In this document: positions 20 to 3,019 of the stretch, piece by piece
How the letters are laid out: each line of letters opens with the position of its first letter
Numbering within the stretch: the first letter of the stretch is position 1
DNA from: a virus
Strand: one strand, 5' to 3'
IMG/VR virus record: IMGVR_UViG_3300027825_000082
Length of the DNA: 15,631 nucleotides
Notes under the pieces: model-generated
The model's database searches: none
Told to the model about the DNA's origin: nothing
What the model saw: the letters and a program-made list of their open reading frames with translations, nothing else
Made by a program: the position numbers and the translations under genes

Positions 20-93
20 TGGCTGGCACACAGGGATTCGAACCCCGATACCTTGCTCCAGAGGCAAGGGTCCTGCCGTTGAACGATGTGCCA
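20..93 (-). tRNA. tRNA-Gln (anticodon CTG), 74 nt, CCA encoded
   Basis: Manual cloverleaf: 7-bp acceptor tggcaca/tgtgcca, D stem gttc/ggac, AC stem cttgc/gcaag with loop ctCTGga, T arm cgggg-ttcgaat-ccctg, discriminator G, CCA. Confidence 0.8.
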
Positions 94-108
94 ATCTCGG
101 TTAGATGC

Positions 109-312
109 TCACTTGGCGATGTCCTTGATCTCGGACATCAGCCTGACGATCTCCGCGTCGCCGGACGCCTGCTTCACGGCCGCCTTGCCGAGCTCCTCGG
201 GCGTGGCGGTGAACGCGCTCTGCGCGGCCTCGCGCTGCCCCGGTGCCTGCATCTGCTCAAGCATCTCGTCGAACACGCCCGTCAGGTCCATGTCGAACAC
301 GTTGCACCTCAT
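109..312 (-). CDS. hypothetical small protein (67 aa) between two tRNA genes
   Basis: ATG-initiated ORF with strongly GC-rich third codon positions like the rest of the operon; no recognisable domain. Confidence 0.5.
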   Translation of the reverse strand: MRCNVFDMDLTGVFDEMLEQMQAPGQREAAQSAFTATPEELGKAAVKQASGDAEIVRLMSEIKDIAK

Positions 313-316
313 GATC

Positions 317-401
317 TGGTAGCCCCGGTAGGATTCGAACCTACGATGGATTTCTCCGCTGGTTTAGGAAACCAGTGCCTTGTCCACTAGACTACGGGGC
401 C
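317..401 (-). tRNA. atypical tRNA, anticodon CCT (Arg-type) with a 14-nt variable region, 85 nt
   Basis: Acceptor ggccccg/cggggct, D stem gtct/aggc, perfect AC stem ctggt/accag loop ttCCTaa, variable region cggagaaatccatc (gga-GAAA-tcc mini-hairpin), T arm gtagg-ttcgaat-cctac, CCA. Confidence 0.6.
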
Positions 402-406
402 AAACT

Positions 407-580
407 TTAATCCCTGTCGCGTGCGCTCTCGCGCCGCTTCTTCAGGTGGGCCGTCCACGGCTGCGGCCTTCCCGCGCCGTCTATCCATCCCCACGCGACC
501 AACCTGTCGAACAGCTCGTGCGTCTGCTTGTCGCCCGCGCTGCTGTAGATGCCTAGCCTCTTGATGTCTTGGATGTCCAT
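407..580 (-). CDS. hypothetical small protein (57 aa)
   Basis: ATG ORF (MDIQDIKRLGIYSSAGDKQTHELFDRLVAWGWIDG...) below the ORF-track size cutoff; very high GC3; weak SD. Confidence 0.4.
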   Translation of the reverse strand: MDIQDIKRLGIYSSAGDKQTHELFDRLVAWGWIDGAGRPQPWTAHLKKRRESARDRD

Positions 581-703
581 AGAAGCATCATAGCACCGGA
601 AAAACTAAACTGGTAGTCCCTGACCGTGTCGGTCGGCGCATCCGGGACCAGATGGTGAAGGGTTCCTTTTTATGAGAGGCGTCTACCCTTCGAACTTTCC
701 CTC

Positions 704-1249
704 TTACTTGTCCAGCGTGACGTTCCAGTAGAGCCACGACTCCCACTGCTTCCACTCCGGGCGCATCTTGTGGATGTGGAGCTTGAAGTTGTACTTGGGG
801 TCGCTGGCCTTCGGCTCGACAGGCTGCTTGAGGAGGTGCATGCCCGCCTCTGCGGGGGTCATGCCGCTCTTCTTCTTGTTGCAGCGCAGGCAAGCCAGGA
901 CCAGGTTCGTCCAGCTCGACACTCCGCCCTGGCAGCGCGGGACCACGTGGTCCAGCGTGTACTCGGACGTGTGCAGAACGCGTGCGCAGTACTGGCACTC
1001 CCCGTTGTCGCGGACGTAAACGTTGCGGCGCGAGAAGGGCACGGCCATGCGCTTGCGGCGGACCCAGGCGTTGCGGACCACGATCACGCGGGGCATCCCG
1101 TAGGAGAAGCTCGGCGTGTTGAGCCTGCGGCCGTCCTCGTCCTCCTTGACGACCTGCGCTCGGCCCTCGTAGAGAAGCTTGGCCGCCCGCTTCCAGGTGC
1201 AGAAGCTCTGGGGCTGCCAGTTCATGTCTAGGACCAGGATTTCGGACAT
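704..1249 (-). CDS. HNH homing-type endonuclease (181 aa) inserted inside the tRNA array
   Basis: Motifs RDNGECQYCA ... LDHVVPRCQGG ... NLVLACLRCN (CxxC / H / N / CxxC, HNH fold); start at internal ATG 1249 preceded by AGAGGAG SD 6 nt upstream; the track ORF 704..1267 has an N-terminal extension. Confidence 0.85.
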   Translation of the reverse strand: MSEILVLDMNWQPQSFCTWKRAAKLLYEGRAQVVKEDEDGRRLNTPSFSYGMPRVIVVRNAWVRRKRMAVPFSRRNVYVRDNGECQYCARVLHTSEYTLDHVVPRCQGGVSSWTNLVLACLRCNKKKSGMTPAEAGMHLLKQPVEPKASDPKYNFKLHIHKMRPEWKQWESWLYWNVTLDK

Positions 1250-1287
1250 AAATGTCTCCTCTCTCAAGGGTTTGCGAAGCCAAAATT

Positions 1288-1363
1288 TGGTGCACCGGGC
1301 GGGAGTCGAACCCGCAACCTGTCGATTAAGAGTCGAATGCTCTGCCAGTTGAGCTACCGATGC
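1288..1363 (-). tRNA. tRNA-Lys (anticodon CTT), 76 nt
   Basis: Acceptor gcatcgg/ccggtgc (one G-U), D arm gctc-aactggca-gagc, AC loop ctCTTaa, T arm gcggg-ttcgact-cccgc, discriminator A, CCA. Confidence 0.8.
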
Positions 1364-1389
1364 GCTGCTACTACAATACCACGAAAATT

Positions 1390-1468
1390 TGGTCGGCGCG
1401 GAGGGATTCGAACCCCCATCTTACCGGGTAAGAGCCGGATATGTTGAACCGTTAAACACCACGCGCCG
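1390..1468 (-). tRNA. tRNA-Lys-like (anticodon CTT), 79 nt with an 11-nt D loop
   Basis: Perfect acceptor cggcgcg/cgcgccg, D stem gtgt/acat, AC stem 4 bp (ccgg/ccgg) plus a U-U mismatch, loop ctCTTac, T arm ggggg-ttcgaat-ccctc, CCA. Confidence 0.6.
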
Positions 1469-1473
1469 AAACT

Positions 1474-1560
1474 TGGCTGGGACGAGAGGACTCGAACCTC
1501 TAGTGAGCGTAGCTCGGGAGGATCAGAACCTCCTGGGGTTGCCAATTTTCCTACGTCCCA
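1474..1560 (-). tRNA. atypical tRNA-like, anticodon CTG (Gln-type) with a 15-nt variable arm, 87 nt
   Basis: Perfect acceptor tgggacg/cgtccca, perfect AC stem ggagg/cctcc loop ttCTGat, variable arm c-GAGC-tac-GCTC-act hairpin, T arm agagg-ttcgagt-cctct, CCA; the D arm is weak (2-3 bp). Confidence 0.5.
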
Positions 1561-1640
1561 ACAACCGAAACTTGTGGGCGGGCGCTTTGGTCATCGCCCT
1601 CCTATGAACGAAGTTGCCTTCTACGTCCCCGCCCAAAACT

Positions 1641-1726
1641 TGGCTCAGGTGGTGGGATTCGAACCCACATGTCCTTTCGGAGCCGGGTTAACAGCCCGGT
1701 GCAGCGACCGTTCATGCGTCACCTGA
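1641..1726 (-). tRNA. atypical tRNA, anticodon GTT (Asn-type) with a 14-nt variable region, 86 nt
   Basis: Perfect acceptor tcaggtg/cacctga, 3-bp D stem gca/tgc with 11-nt loop, perfect AC stem ccggg/cccgg loop ctGTTaa, variable ctccgaaaggacat (tcc-GAAA-gga), T arm gtggg-ttcgaat-cccac, CCA. Confidence 0.55.
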
Positions 1727-1796
1727 ACAACGCGGTTTCCAATGTTTATCGGCTTGCGCCGGGATGGCCCGAAGGCTCAAACATCCACCGCGAAAC

Positions 1797-1871
1797 TGGC
1801 TGGGACGGGAGGACTCGAACCTCCATCTTTCACCTTAACAGGGTGACAACTTGCCGTTAGCCCACATCCCA
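1797..1871 (-). tRNA. tRNA-Asn (anticodon GTT), 75 nt
   Basis: Acceptor tgggatg/cgtccca, AC stem tcacc/ggtga loop ctGTTaa, T arm ggagg-ttcgagt-cctcc, CCA; D stem has two G-U pairs. Confidence 0.75.
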
Positions 1872-1877
1872 AAAGTC

Positions 1878-1954
1878 TGGTACCCAAGGAGGGATTCGAA
1901 CCCCCGACCTCCGCGTTCGTAGCGCGTTGCTCTAGTCCGCTGAGCTACTCAGGC
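1878..1954 (-). tRNA. tRNA-Arg (anticodon ACG), 77 nt
   Basis: Classic D arm tagctcagcggactagagca, AC loop ctACGaa, T arm ggggg-ttcgaat-ccctc, CCA; acceptor stem has three G-U pairs. Confidence 0.75.
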
Positions 1955-1964
1955 ACTTCTAAAA

Positions 1965-2039
1965 TGGCTGGGACGGTAGGACTCGAACCTACAACCATAC
2001 GGTTAACAGCCGTACGCTCTGCCATTGAGCTACATCCCA
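1965..2039 (-). tRNA. tRNA-Asn (anticodon GTT), 75 nt, fully canonical
   Basis: Acceptor tgggatg/cgtccca, D arm gctc-aatggca-gagc, AC stem tacgg/ccgta loop ctGTTaa, T arm gtagg-ttcgagt-cctac, CCA. Confidence 0.85.
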
Positions 2040-2044
2040 AAACC

Positions 2045-2119
2045 TGGAGGTCCCGGAGGGATTCGAACCCTCACTGTTCCGCGTTCGAAGCGCGGTCGAC
2101 TATCGTTGCCGACGGAACC
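2045..2119 (-). tRNA. tRNA-Arg (anticodon TCG), 75 nt
   Basis: Acceptor ggttccg/cgggacc (one G-U), AC stem ccgcg/cgcgg loop ctTCGaa, T arm gaggg-ttcgaat-ccctc, discriminator T, CCA; D arm short and irregular. Confidence 0.65.
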
Positions 2120-2125
2120 GAAATC

Positions 2126-2202
2126 TGGTGCTCGCGGGCGGATTCGAACCGCCAACCTCAGCCTTCGCAGGGCTGCGCTCTGATCCGTTGAGCTACGCGA
2201 GC
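2126..2202 (-). tRNA. tRNA-Arg (anticodon GCG), 77 nt
   Basis: Perfect acceptor gctcgcg/cgcgagc, D arm gctc-aacggatca-gagc, AC stem cagcc/ggctg loop ctGCGaa, T arm ggcgg-ttcgaat-ccgcc, CCA. Confidence 0.8.
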
Positions 2203-2205
2203 AAA

Positions 2206-2397
2206 CTAAATCTTGTACGCCACGCCGTCCTGGCCCGTGTACGTGCGGCTGACGCCGAAAATCTCCCGAGCCAGATTCCCGCGTTCGACGCAAAAGGCTG
2301 GAGCGCCCTCCCACCTTGAGCATACCGTCCCCGGCGAGGCGTTGCACCTTGGGTTAGGGCAACGAACGTCGAACGCGGGATGGTTGGACTCGACCAT
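2206..2397 (-). CDS. hypothetical Cys-containing small protein (63 aa) between tRNA genes
   Basis: ATG ORF from the track; moderate GC3 (about 70%); CPNPRC...C...C pattern; no clear SD. Confidence 0.35.
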   Translation of the reverse strand: MVESNHPAFDVRCPNPRCNASPGTVCSRWEGAPAFCVERGNLAREIFGVSRTYTGQDGVAYKI

Positions 2398-2402
2398 ATC
2401 TT

Positions 2403-2479
2403 TGGTGCCCGTGGAGGGATTCGAACCCCCGGCCGCTGCCTTCGGAGGGCAGTGCTCTGTTCCGCTGAGCTACGCGGGC
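2403..2479 (-). tRNA. tRNA-Arg (anticodon CCG), 77 nt
   Basis: Acceptor gcccgcg/cacgggc (one C-A mismatch), D arm gctc-agcggaaca-gagc, AC stem ctgcc/ggcag loop ctCCGaa, T arm ggggg-ttcgaat-ccctc, CCA. Confidence 0.75.
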
Positions 2480-2628
2480 ATCTGTTTCTCAAACGGCGCG
2501 ATCTGCTTCCCCAGCTTCGCCGCCTGCTTCGCCAAGGCCTGCTTCATGGTTCCTGGCGGAAGGTCGCTCGCGATCCTTTTCAGGTTCGCTATCTGCGCCT
2601 TCGTCTTCAGAATGTCCATCTTCTCCAT
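2470..2628 (-). CDS. hypothetical Lys-rich small protein (52 aa); its 3' end overlaps tRNA-Arg(CCG) by 10 nt
   Basis: ATG ORF (MEKMDILKTKAQIANLKRIASDLPPGTMKQ...) below the track cutoff; high GC3; GAGG SD 6 nt upstream; the overlap with a tRNA lowers confidence. Confidence 0.3.
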   Translation of the reverse strand: MEKMDILKTKAQIANLKRIASDLPPGTMKQALAKQAAKLGKQIAPFEKQMPA

Positions 2629-2648
2629 GTCAAGCCTCTCTCTAAATC

Positions 2649-2728
2649 TGGTGGACCCGGCGGGACTCGAACCCGCGTCTCCGTATGCCCGAAGGCTCCC
2701 GGCGACTCTGCCCCTGAGCTACGGCCCC
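2649..2728 (-). tRNA. tRNA-like element (80 nt) with an aberrant anticodon arm; possible pseudo-tRNA (GCC anticodon if folded canonically)
   Basis: Good acceptor (ggggccg/cgggtcc, one mismatch), D arm gctc-aggggca-gagt, T arm gcggg-ttcgagt-cccgc, CCA; the central region gccgggaGCCttcgggc has an internal G-G mismatch and forms a gcc-UUCG-ggc tetraloop instead of a 7-nt U33-containing loop. Confidence 0.45.
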
Positions 2729-2734
2729 GAACTT

Positions 2735-2810
2735 TGGGGTGAGCGAGGGGATTCGAACCCCCGACTACTGGCTCCACAGGCCAGCGTTCTGCCGCTGAAC
2801 TACGCTCACC
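2735..2810 (-). tRNA. tRNA-His (anticodon GTG) with encoded G-1, 75+1 nt
   Basis: Perfect acceptor gtgagcg/cgctcac, extra 5' G pairing with the C73 discriminator (His identity element), AC stem ctggc/gccag loop ctGTGga, T arm ggggg-ttcgaat-cccct, CCA. Confidence 0.8.
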
Positions 2811-2825
2811 ACAGCTACCCCTAAT

Positions 2826-2904
2826 TGGGGTGACGAGTGGGGGTCGAACCCACCAGAACTGGTTTCACAGACCAGTGCAACATCCCCGGAGTTGCCATCG
2901 TCAC
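2826..2904 (-). tRNA. second GTG-anticodon tRNA (His-type) without G-1, 79 nt with an 11-nt D loop
   Basis: Perfect acceptor gtgacga/tcgtcac, D stem gcaa/ttgc, perfect AC stem ctggt/accag loop ctGTGaa, T arm gtggg-ttcgacc-cccac, discriminator C, CCA; the nucleotide 5' of +1 is T, not G. Confidence 0.65.
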
Positions 2905-2943
2905 AATCTGCGCGGCGGCCGAATCACGCCACGACTTAAGCTT

Positions 2944-3019
2944 TGGCAGGGGCGGAGGGACTCGAACCCCCGTCTTACGGTTTTGGAGACCGACGTCGTA
3001 GCCGCTAGACCACGCCCCT
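2944..3019 (-). tRNA. tRNA-Trp (anticodon CCA), 76 nt
   Basis: Perfect acceptor aggggcg/cgcccct, AC stem cggt/accg loop ctCCAaa, T arm ggggg-ttcgagt-ccctc, discriminator G, CCA. Confidence 0.75.

Follow-up and report, generated by a model that had tools for sequence, protein, structure and literature searches.

Three tRNA genes in a stretch of viral DNA (IMG/VR record IMGVR_UViG_3300027825_000082), analysed here as a window of 15,631 nucleotides, combine class-I anticodons with a long, class-II-like variable arm. In textbook accounts, long variable arms of bacterial tRNAs are confined to the Leu, Ser, Tyr, and Sec species. The three genes, denoted A, B, and C, encode tRNA-Arg(CCU), tRNA-Gln(CUG), and tRNA-Asn(GUU), and they are very probably functional cognate tRNAs in which the extra arm is held by selection. 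Together with their relatives they form a real and apparently unremarked tRNA architecture that is common in phages; a search of the full-text literature, the coverage of which leaves out most subscription journals, turned up no account, for phages or for bacteria, of long-variable-arm tRNAs that bear class-I anticodons. A sequence-only reading of the window had proposed class-II-style arms on class-I anticodons, and it was right, the feature being conserved and widespread among phages.

All three genes are on the minus strand, and ARAGORN calls them at exactly the coordinates of that reading: A at 317..401 (85 nt), B at 1474..1560 (87 nt), and C at 1641..1726 (86 nt). Their variable regions measure 14, 15, and 14 nt, as had been claimed, and read C-GGA-GAAA-UCC-AUC in A (345..358), C-GAGC-UAC-GCUC-ACU in B (1502..1516), and C-UCC-GAAA-GGA-CAU in C (1669..1682), which places the two expected GAAA mini-hairpins in A and C. 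The layout is the same in each, with one nucleotide, a stem of 3–4 bp, a loop, and three nucleotides. Around the arm, each tRNA has an acceptor stem of 7 bp, anticodon and T stems of 5 bp each, seven nucleotides in the anticodon loop (U33 and A37 among them), UUCGAAU or UUCGAGU as the T loop, and an encoded CCA. The D stem has four pairs in A (one of them U.G), three in C, and two in B, where an atypical yet invariant D arm (GGAAAAUUGGCAACCCC) holds two Watson-Crick pairs and two A.C oppositions. A compatible 15–48 pair is present in all three, G-C in A and A-U in B and C.

The acceptor of A is GGCCCCG/CGGGGCU with G1.U72, the discriminator is A73, and the D loop contains GGAC-A, the final A being A20; its extra arm is a GNRA tetraloop on a 3-bp stem, and the 3′ flank of three nucleotides ends in C48. 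B carries U1-A72, G2-C71, G3-C70, and G73, while C carries U1-A72 and G73 and has A8 in place of U8. The identity sets of class-II tRNAs, namely A73 for Leu, G73 with an arm of 5–7 bp for Ser, and A73 with a GUA anticodon for Tyr, are not found in them: the anticodons are CCU, CUG, and GUU, the extra stems are only 3–4 bp, and the discriminator and first pair match Arg, Gln, and Asn.

The covariance-model check that the sequence-only reading had proposed, failure in which was to count as refutation, is favorable for A and C, whereas B fails it. With the Rfam tRNA model (RF00005, threshold 29 bits), A scores 59.1 bits and C 43.8 bits, and B gives no match even at E<=10. The minimum-free-energy fold is likewise a five-arm cloverleaf for A (z −2.74) and for C, and is not a cloverleaf for B. 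Despite its failure with the general model, B is regarded as a conserved structured tRNA because of the comparative covariation in the long-Gln family. Single 3-bp hairpins are not significant against shuffles of their own variable region (median P 0.29, with 2/34 below 0.05); significance is therefore drawn from comparative tests.

Related contigs for such tests were fetched by anchoring on the HNH endonuclease gene of the window's tRNA array and on its gene for a major-vault-protein-like (MVP) product, and ARAGORN found 370 tRNAs on these loci. Class-I tRNAs with Arg, Asn, Gln, Lys, and Trp anticodons have a bimodal length distribution in the related arrays, 73–80 versus 85–91 nt. Some 29 distinct tRNAs are of the long kind, comprising Arg-ACG, Arg-CCG, Arg-CCT, Arg-TCT, Asn-GTT, Gln-CTG, Lys-CTT, Lys-TTT, and Trp-CCA.

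The clearest covariation comes from six distinct long-Gln orthologues of B (alignment A1). Within the cloverleaf, 90.7% of cells are paired and 12 pairs have changed on both sides, with a covariation score of 0.475 versus 0.162 in shuffles; none of 500 shuffles scored as high, and slid controls are 36–54% paired. The acceptor, anticodon, and T helices are paired in 100%, 96.7%, and 100% of cells, with compensatory changes, and the variable stem is paired in 95.8%, with compensatory changes at three of its four pairs. Every helix of the cloverleaf in the long-Gln family, the variable stem included, thus shows compensatory change, except for the D stem. The variable stems of this family range over GACCA/UGGUC, GCCU/AGGC, GUGC/GCAC, and GCC/GGC. 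A, B, and C each have the covarying 7-bp acceptor, 5-bp anticodon stem with 7-nt loop, and 5-bp T stem of a tRNA, along with a variable region of class-II size whose stem covaries.

For A, long orthologues exist in three related contigs (L029, L042, and L052), and other relatives have short orthologues in the same slot after the HNH gene. An Arg-CCU gene fills this slot in 15 relatives, some with a 5-nt variable loop of the AGGUC type. Three Arg-CCU tRNAs have a hairpin between positions 45 and 46, with stems GGA/UCC, GGGA/UCCC, and GCACC/GGUGC that are all capped by GAAA (alignment A3). A short Arg-CCU is found in L030, the HNH protein of which is 92% identical to that of the window. The occurrence of long and short Arg-CCU at one slot in close relatives indicates that the two forms are interchangeable at a single locus.

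Orthologues of C (in L047, L045, L059, and L058) hold the UCC/GGA stem, and GAAA, GCAA, and UUCG alternate as its stable tetraloop. Stems in other Asn lineages include GGC/GCC, GUC/GAC, GGGU/GCCC, and GAUA/UAUC. In the Asn family, the MAFFT alignment (A2) lost register at the 5′ end and where stems are unequal in length; pairs were instead counted by register from the loop. Across the contigs, orthologues of the long tRNAs are held where the HNH proteins are only 55–99% identical. When the variable region is left out, the long tRNAs of the Gln, Arg-ACG, Arg-CCT, Lys-UUU, and window-type Asn lineages are nearest to long orthologues of the same anticodon (similarity 0.83–0.96), compared, over the whole set, with 0.66–0.88 for short tRNAs of the same amino acid and 0.66–0.82 for class-II tRNAs; in some other lineages, namely several Asn, Trp, and Arg-UCU, this ordering is mixed or reversed. 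On these comparisons, the long design forms old orthologous lineages within one huge-phage clade. Distribution in the clade is patchy, with several related arrays of 9–15 tRNAs lacking any long member. In IMG/VR, exact patterns for the long-Gln D arm and for a conserved intergenic RNA matched only one close relative, which had been found previously.

The long tRNAs could also be decaying duplicates or prediction artefacts, that is, pseudogenes born by local duplication in a fast-evolving array, or precursors of small RNAs. The failure of B with the Rfam model is in keeping with this, as are the label “tRNA-Pseudo-GTT” on the long Asn of phage phiPsa374 and the presence of further irregular tRNAs in the array (His 2826-2904, Lys 1390-1468, and Gly 2649-2728). 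Covariation contradicts both forms of the idea, which is scarcely credible. Compensatory changes extend to all helices but the D stem and include the extra arm, orthologues persist at the HNH divergence given above, at least six acceptor pairs form in 102/103 distinct long tRNA-Asn sequences, and U33, R37, and the T-loop are conserved at 91–99%. The small-RNA precursors suggested in the sequence-only reading find no support, as covariation maintains the acceptor, anticodon, variable, and T helices and CCA is encoded.

The extra hairpin recurs in hundreds of phage tRNAs. IMG/VR was scanned with the pattern CTGTTAA-N(9-11)-GAAA-N(9-13)-GGTTCRA, which demands extra length and not complementarity, and at least 120 matches were obtained. 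Of the 120 matches listed, 104 fall in ARAGORN tRNA-Asn(GTT) genes of 83–90 nt, with at least 91 distinct sequences. Among these matches, the three nucleotides on either side of GAAA are fully complementary in 84 of 91 distinct long tRNA-Asn, compared with a mean of 11.7 and a maximum of 22 when partners are exchanged between the sequences. The three stem pairs are formed in 100%, 99%, and 93% of the 91, the closing pair occurs as six types, and the fourth position is paired in 34%. At the same listed loci, which were chosen for long Asn and hence give biased counts of the other anticodons, long forms with the same arm also occur for Met (9/82), Thr (9/79, eight of them UGU), Cys (7/26), Lys (8/94), Ile (5/57), Asp (4/53), Trp (3/37), Gln (3/55), and Arg (2/75), with none for His (0/41) or Val (0/36).

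Cultured phages carry the design as well. A blastn search of C against INPHARED gave matches that extend through the variable region. Pseudomonas phage Milchi has a long Asn (C-UCC-GAAA-GGA-AACU), and Xanthomonas phage X1 has both a long Asn (C-GAUA-GAAA-UAUC-CGA) and a long Lys-CUU (C-GGC-GAAA-GCC-CAUC). A long Lys-CUU is present in Ruegeria phage vB_RpoS-V10, a long Lys-UUU of 87 nt in Serratia phage BF, and two long Lys-UUU in the 642-kb phage LR756502. The tRNA-Asn of phiKZ is long, at 87 nt with CCA (L234 1473-1559) and the arm U-GGC-GAAA-GCC-CACC; it is annotated as 89 nt at AF399011 269557-269645. In the phiPsa374 group, the long Asn that is annotated as a pseudogene (L235 1494-1580) directly follows an Asn of normal length. 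Long class-I tRNAs are found in XacN1, BUDD, Erwinia jumbo phages, and others, and GenBank labels such genes plainly as tRNA-Asn or tRNA-Lys, as “tRNA-OTHER”, or as pseudogenes. As judged from these genes, the design recurs across unrelated phages, including those in culture. Bacterial genome contigs, searched with one exact long-Gln D-arm pattern and not as a census, yielded only a chance non-tRNA match in a cyanobacterial metagenome-assembled genome.

The architecture of the arm was surveyed in 34 long tRNAs from the huge-phage clade and cultured phages. A single 5′ nucleotide precedes the stem in 25/34, the stem is 3–5 bp, and three 3′ nucleotides are usual; the loop is GNRA in 20/34 and UUCG in three or four more. 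In a wider set, the registers of one 5′ nucleotide with three or four 3′ nucleotides together account for 74%. The same phages' tRNA-Ser have stems of 5–7 bp and one 3′ nucleotide, and their tRNA-Leu have one or two 3′ nucleotides. Their tRNA-Tyr have one 5′ nucleotide, a stem of 3–4 bp, and three 3′ nucleotides. Given the 1-nt 5′ flank, the short stem, and the 3-nt 3′ flank, the long class-I arms share the geometry of the Tyr type.

The origin of the arm in long tRNA-Asn is ambiguous between an insertion and a Tyr-like ancestor. In a nearest-neighbor comparison of 103 long tRNA-Asn, 53 are nearest to a short Asn, 20 to a Tyr, and 30 to others. Separately, a reading of the insert as an intron was rejected: it is 9–13 nt, lacks bulge-helix-bulge or group-I features, and covaries as a hairpin.

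Identity marks were compared among distinct sequences. G73 is found in 94/103 long tRNA-Asn and U1 in 69/103, similar to short Asn (52/59 and 41/59), while Tyr tRNAs have A73 in 48/50 and G1 in 45/50. Long Gln holds U1-A72, G2-C71, G3-C70, G10, and G73 invariant, and these compose the established GlnRS identity set. Long Arg holds A20 in the D loop and C35, and long Trp holds A1-U72 and G73. Over 179 long class-I tRNAs, U33 is conserved in 99%, R37 in 98%, and a UUCRA T-loop in 91%, and a G-C or A-U pair between positions 15 and 48 is possible in 70% versus 20% for the 15–47 control. These core marks have values that match those of 1003 short tRNAs.

Codon use in the window is dominated by CAG (108/116 Gln codons), AAC (82/86 Asn), and AAG (137/142 Lys), and AGG makes up 24/131 Arg codons; the long tRNAs thus read codons on which the phage depends. 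Among the matches listed, a short Asn gene stands beside the long one within the fetched stretch at only 30/104 loci. In phiKZ-infected cells, Grad-seq found that the phage tRNAs as a group are expressed and co-sediment with 30S fractions, the Asn species not being singled out (PMC8545117).

This evidence bears on whether the arm could switch identity, a possibility raised in the sequence-only reading. The arm would then recruit SerRS on G73 species, or TyrRS or LeuRS on A73 species, so that part of the reading of CAG, AAC, or AGG would yield a different amino acid, as happens with nematode nev-tRNAs and bacterial allo-tRNAs. In tRNA-Ser, the main identity signal is extra-arm size together with G73 (PMC9976931), and B and C combine the two; the arm geometry of one 5′ and three 3′ nucleotides is that of tRNA-Tyr, and some long-Asn lineages have Tyr-like D arms and the Tyr neighbors counted above. 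However, the stems are 3–5 bp versus 5–7 bp in the phages' own tRNA-Ser, with a 3′ flank of 3–4 nt versus 1 nt. The discriminator and first base pair follow the amino acid of the anticodon and not Tyr, Leu, or Ser, and Gln holds the full GlnRS acceptor set. CAG and AAC are 93–95% of the phage's Gln and Asn codons, and misreading them would harm every phage protein, and at the loci among the matches listed the long form is often the sole Asn tRNA in the fetched stretch. A switch of identity is therefore very improbable, and weak mis-serylation of G73 species stays conceivable.

Cognate identity also sets the phage tRNAs apart from known tRNAs with unusual variable arms. They resemble class-II tRNA-Tyr in having a stem-loop between positions 45 and 46 with one nucleotide on the 5′ side, three on the 3′ side, a stem of 3–4 bp, and often a GNRA loop, and they share with class-II tRNAs the 7/5 acceptor/T arrangement and normal marks of the L-shape. 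Unlike class II, their anticodons are class-I (Arg, Gln, and Asn, as well as Lys, Trp, Thr, Cys, Met, and others), and without the arm most of their bodies are nearest to tRNAs of the same amino acid, the Asn origin being mixed.

The nematode nev-tRNAs described by Hamashima and colleagues likewise pair a long variable arm with a class-I anticodon (Gly-CCC and Ile-UAU), but these eukaryotic tRNAs have Leu- or Ser-type bodies, are charged with leucine, are weakly expressed, and read rare codons (PMC4033280). The phage tRNAs instead retain cognate identity marks and read the commonest phage codons; they come from phages, and in sequence comparisons their bodies are nearest to long orthologues or cognate class-I tRNAs. 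The allo-tRNAs and selC*-like tRNAs of Mukai and colleagues (2017) are metagenomic bacterial and phage tRNAs whose variable arm is long and whose anticodons are many; what defines the allo-tRNAs is an acceptor/T arrangement of 8/4 or 9/3, a D arm like that of tRNA-Sec, and Ser or Ala identity (PMC5389517). A, B, and C differ in being 7/5 with ordinary D loops and do not belong to that group. Engineered aptamer-tagged tRNAs with an added small hairpin are still translationally active in E. coli (Mukai 2020, PMC7590224); these are synthetic amber suppressors on an allo-tRNA chassis, whereas the phage tRNAs are natural and have sense anticodons.

In the proposed mechanism, class-I Arg, Gln, and Asn tRNAs would have gained a class-II-like arm and kept it under selection. 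The arm is a hairpin of 3–5 bp, mostly capped by GNRA or UUCG, between positions 45 and 46, leaving the last nucleotide of the variable region free for the 15–48 tertiary pair. Charging would be carried out by the host's cognate synthetase or amidotransferase pathway, and use on the ribosome would be as for natural class-II tRNAs. The arm is predicted to protrude right by the variable loop and the anticodon stem's 3′ strand, and to alter that surface. Host defense nucleases may consequently bind or cut the phage copy poorly, in which case the phage would retain a supply of the targeted tRNA. As a whole, the explanation by cognate class-I tRNAs, a selected arm, and evasion of defense has about an even chance of being correct. 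Nuclease evasion as the purpose of the arm, taken alone, is possible while falling short of probable.

Evasion, in line with the nuclease-resistant variants offered in the sequence-only reading, is favored among the purposes considered because of precedents for rescue by phage tRNAs, the variable loop of T5 tRNA-Tyr, an AriB cut near the arm, the coexistence of long and short forms, and patchiness. Phage tRNAs rescue infection from PARIS, retron-Eco7/Septu, and PrrC. Septu cuts tRNA-Tyr within the variable arm, and the tRNA-Tyr of phage T5 resists cleavage by retron-Eco7 owing to its distinctive variable loop (PMC13096335). Lys-UUU, Thr-UGU, and Asn-GUU are targets of the AriB nuclease of PARIS, which cleaves them between positions 40 and 41 (PMC12409363). 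This site is a few nucleotides from where the extra arm emerges, and Asn, Lys, and Thr-UGU are among the long forms found. An accessory in an arms race would be expected to be spread unevenly over close relatives, as the long tRNAs are. Like the nuclease-resistant T5 tRNAs (Lys, Thr, and Asn against PARIS, and Tyr against retron-Eco7), the long tRNAs are phage copies of host tRNA species that nucleases may target, Asn-GUU being a known case, and in T5 tRNA-Tyr the protective difference also sits in the variable arm. The T5 tRNAs and the anticodon-loop variants of mycobacteriophages, in contrast, substitute bases in an existing arm, while here a whole arm is added to tRNAs that normally have a loop of 4–5 nt.

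Several points weigh against this account. The expression, processing, charging, and cleavage resistance of A, B, and C are predictions from their sequences. The Rfam tRNA model does not recognize B, whose D stem is very weak and whose minimum-free-energy fold is not a cloverleaf; C is without U8. Known phage evasion of anticodon nucleases uses substitutions in the anticodon loop or anticodon stem, and the anticodon stem-loop, the part that most characterized nucleases read, may not be shielded by an extra arm. Class-II synthetases, such as AsnRS and LysRS, approach the tRNA from the variable-loop side, and the arm could hinder charging by them. A phage origin is supported and Asn-GUU is a PARIS target, but the long set of the window overlaps the PARIS targets only at Asn; Arg-CCU and Gln-CUG are matched to no known nuclease. 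The apparent excess of Asn, Lys, and Thr comes from a biased sample, drawn through the HNH-anchored array block and the Asn-specific pattern.

The same cognate decoders may instead have an arm that stabilizes structure without any role in defense. It would steady the core, for example where D arms are weak or m7G46, acp3U47, or s4U8 is absent, or it would aid polycistronic processing. Long lineages do have remodeled cores, with the two A.C oppositions in the D stem of B, A8 or G8 in the lineage of C, and U11.G24 in long Arg, and a 3-bp stem requires for its folding the kind of unusually stable cap that these stems have (GNRA in 20/34 and several UUCG). The same loops occur on the Leu, Ser, and Tyr arms of these phages, and the core marks are otherwise normal. 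Stabilization leaves unexplained why long and short copies of one anticodon so often lie side by side, as they do in X1, Milchi, V10, and the window, why the occurrence of long forms is uneven across close relatives, and why a bacterial copy is lacking from the genome scan with its one exact Gln pattern. It is considered unlikely.

The coexistence of long and short copies of one anticodon in the window and several cultured phages would also suit a non-translational role. The long tRNAs might act as a sponge for a nuclease or sensor, as a “self”-marked tRNA for a phage protein of repair, protection, or sorting, or as a donor for aminoacyl-tRNA-dependent transferases. The window encodes an RlaP nucleotidyltransferase of a predicted RNA-repair pathway, Mom is a known phage enzyme that modifies DNA with charged Gly-tRNA (PMC13219725), and some viral tRNAs possibly do more than rescue translation (PMC12409363). 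Such a role is quite improbable, and the decoy function of the sequence-only reading is weakened: at 74/104 loci among the matches listed, the long Asn has no short Asn with it in the fetched stretch, and long Arg-CCU substitutes for short at one slot. Synthetase identity marks, U33, R37, and the T-loop are kept, the anticodons match the most used codons, and Pfam and PHROG searches of 20 open reading frames (ORFs) of the window found no conserved protein partner.

The three genes are part of a tRNA array on the minus strand (20..3019) with 16 ARAGORN tRNA genes: Trp, two His, Gly, five Arg, three Asn, two Gln, and two Lys. The canonical-length copies with the same anticodons that the sequence-only reading listed are all called by ARAGORN on this strand, namely tRNA-Gln(CUG) of 74 nt at 20..93 (Rfam 52.6 bits) and tRNA-Asn(GUU) of 75 nt at 1797..1871 (58.6 bits) and 1965..2039 (72 bits). 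Small ORFs and one HNH endonuclease gene lie between the tRNAs. The HNH gene (704..1267, minus strand; Pfam HNH 8.8e-13, PHROG 16726) is located between Lys and the long Arg-CCU, and the block order Trp-His-Arg-Gln-Asn-Lys-HNH-Arg-CCU is also found in related contigs. The small ORFs at 109-312, 410-580, 2206-2397, and 2490-2630 (minus strand) would encode 55–67 aa without recognized domains. HNH genes adjoin long tRNAs within arrays, and in phage Milchi one is between the short and long Asn (L110 2572-2967); a homing endonuclease in a tRNA region amplifies anti-defense tRNA genes (PMC13096335). In related huge-phage contigs, the true class-II tRNAs (Ser, Leu, and Tyr) are grouped in a block of their own (L023 12809-14322, L024 12505-14064, and L022 4750-6574), apart from the Trp-His-Arg-Gln-Asn-Lys block, in which the long class-I tRNAs are found, and the arrays therefore appear to be sorted by tRNA type.

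The array also contains irregular RNAs on the minus strand. A second tRNA-His(GUG) of 79 nt (2826-2904) has an enlarged D region with extra nucleotides around a CAAC/GUUG stem; it adjoins a canonical His (2735-2809), has no Rfam tRNA match, and gives a weak tRNA-Sec match of 27.8 bits. Similar His tRNAs of 79–80 nt in four contigs (L002, L022, L045, and L047) indicate that the enlarged-D form is conserved. A Lys-CUU of 79 nt (1390-1468), also seen in L041 and L058, has extra nucleotides by the D stem, and its anticodon stem is of 4 bp with U.U. A Gly-GCC of 80 nt (2649-2728) has a variable region of 10 nt and no U33, and its acceptor and anticodon stems contain mismatches; it gives an Rfam tRNA score of 35.3 bits and a sub-threshold tmRNA match. 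Between B and C is a stem-closed RNA of about 70 nt (1561-1640; GGGCGGG...CCCGCCC), followed by ACAA where tRNAs have NCCA. Its homologue in the low-G+C relative L022 (17222-17290) has a compensatorily changed closing stem, GAGCGAG/CUCGCUC; the two share the core GAAGGCAACUUYGUUCAURGAGGGC. Rfam gives no match, and another stem-closed element is found at 1727-1796. Outside the window, a 91-nt “tRNA-Arg(UCU)” (L031 2734-2824, also L032 2650-2740) has good acceptor, anticodon, and T arms, about 8 nt in place of the D arm, and a 23-nt variable region with CCG-UAAA-CGG, and it may be D-armless or rearranged.

On its gene content, the window reads as a piece of a large or huge phage genome. Its G+C content is 58–67% and its genes are on the minus strand. 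The MVP-like gene (10478-12991, 837 aa; MVP shoulder 1.6e-25, Vault_3) lies beside genes for an SPFH/Band-7 lipoprotein (9596-10399) and for RlaP, of a predicted RNA-repair pathway (8114-9271), all on the minus strand. The assignment follows from the MVP-like protein, which in INPHARED matches only three huge uncultured phage records of 462–735 kb at about 41% identity; closer relatives are found among viral contigs of IMG/VR, the longest of 317 kb. The array has no megablast match in INPHARED, and distant blastn of the whole array gave nothing beyond generic tRNA similarity. RlaP, two HNH endonucleases (one of them within the array), SPFH, and the MVP-like protein are the only domains recognized in the 20 ORFs, and the Pfam and PHROG searches of these ORFs revealed no synthetase, nuclease, or tRNA-modifying enzyme as a possible partner.

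The discrete, conserved, and covarying tRNAs for Arg, Gln, Asn, Lys, Trp, and other amino acids break the textbook limit on long variable arms. General covariance models and pseudogene flags miss or mislabel such phage tRNAs, which are probably functional. If they are charged cognately, an extra arm is no obstacle to ArgRS, GlnRS, AsnRS, LysRS, or the amidotransferase pathways, a tolerance that would be useful for tRNA engineering and orthogonal pairs. With phiKZ, X1, Milchi, V10, and BF in culture, the design is directly testable. A broader and somewhat unlikely proposal is that arm addition is a general phage strategy, structural as opposed to sequence-level, for hiding phage tRNAs from tRNA-cleaving immune nucleases in phages from 45 kb to 700 kb, phiKZ included. 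The nucleases concerned would dock on the face of the anticodon stem and variable loop, candidates being such as the PARIS/OLD-type Toprim, PtuAB/Septu, and VapC-like enzymes. The long tRNAs would then constitute a third natural tRNA architecture, a class-I identity on a class-II shape that synthetases, EF-Tu, and the ribosome accept. If the arm does protect from tRNA-targeting immunity, it would represent a new evasion mechanism in a very active field.

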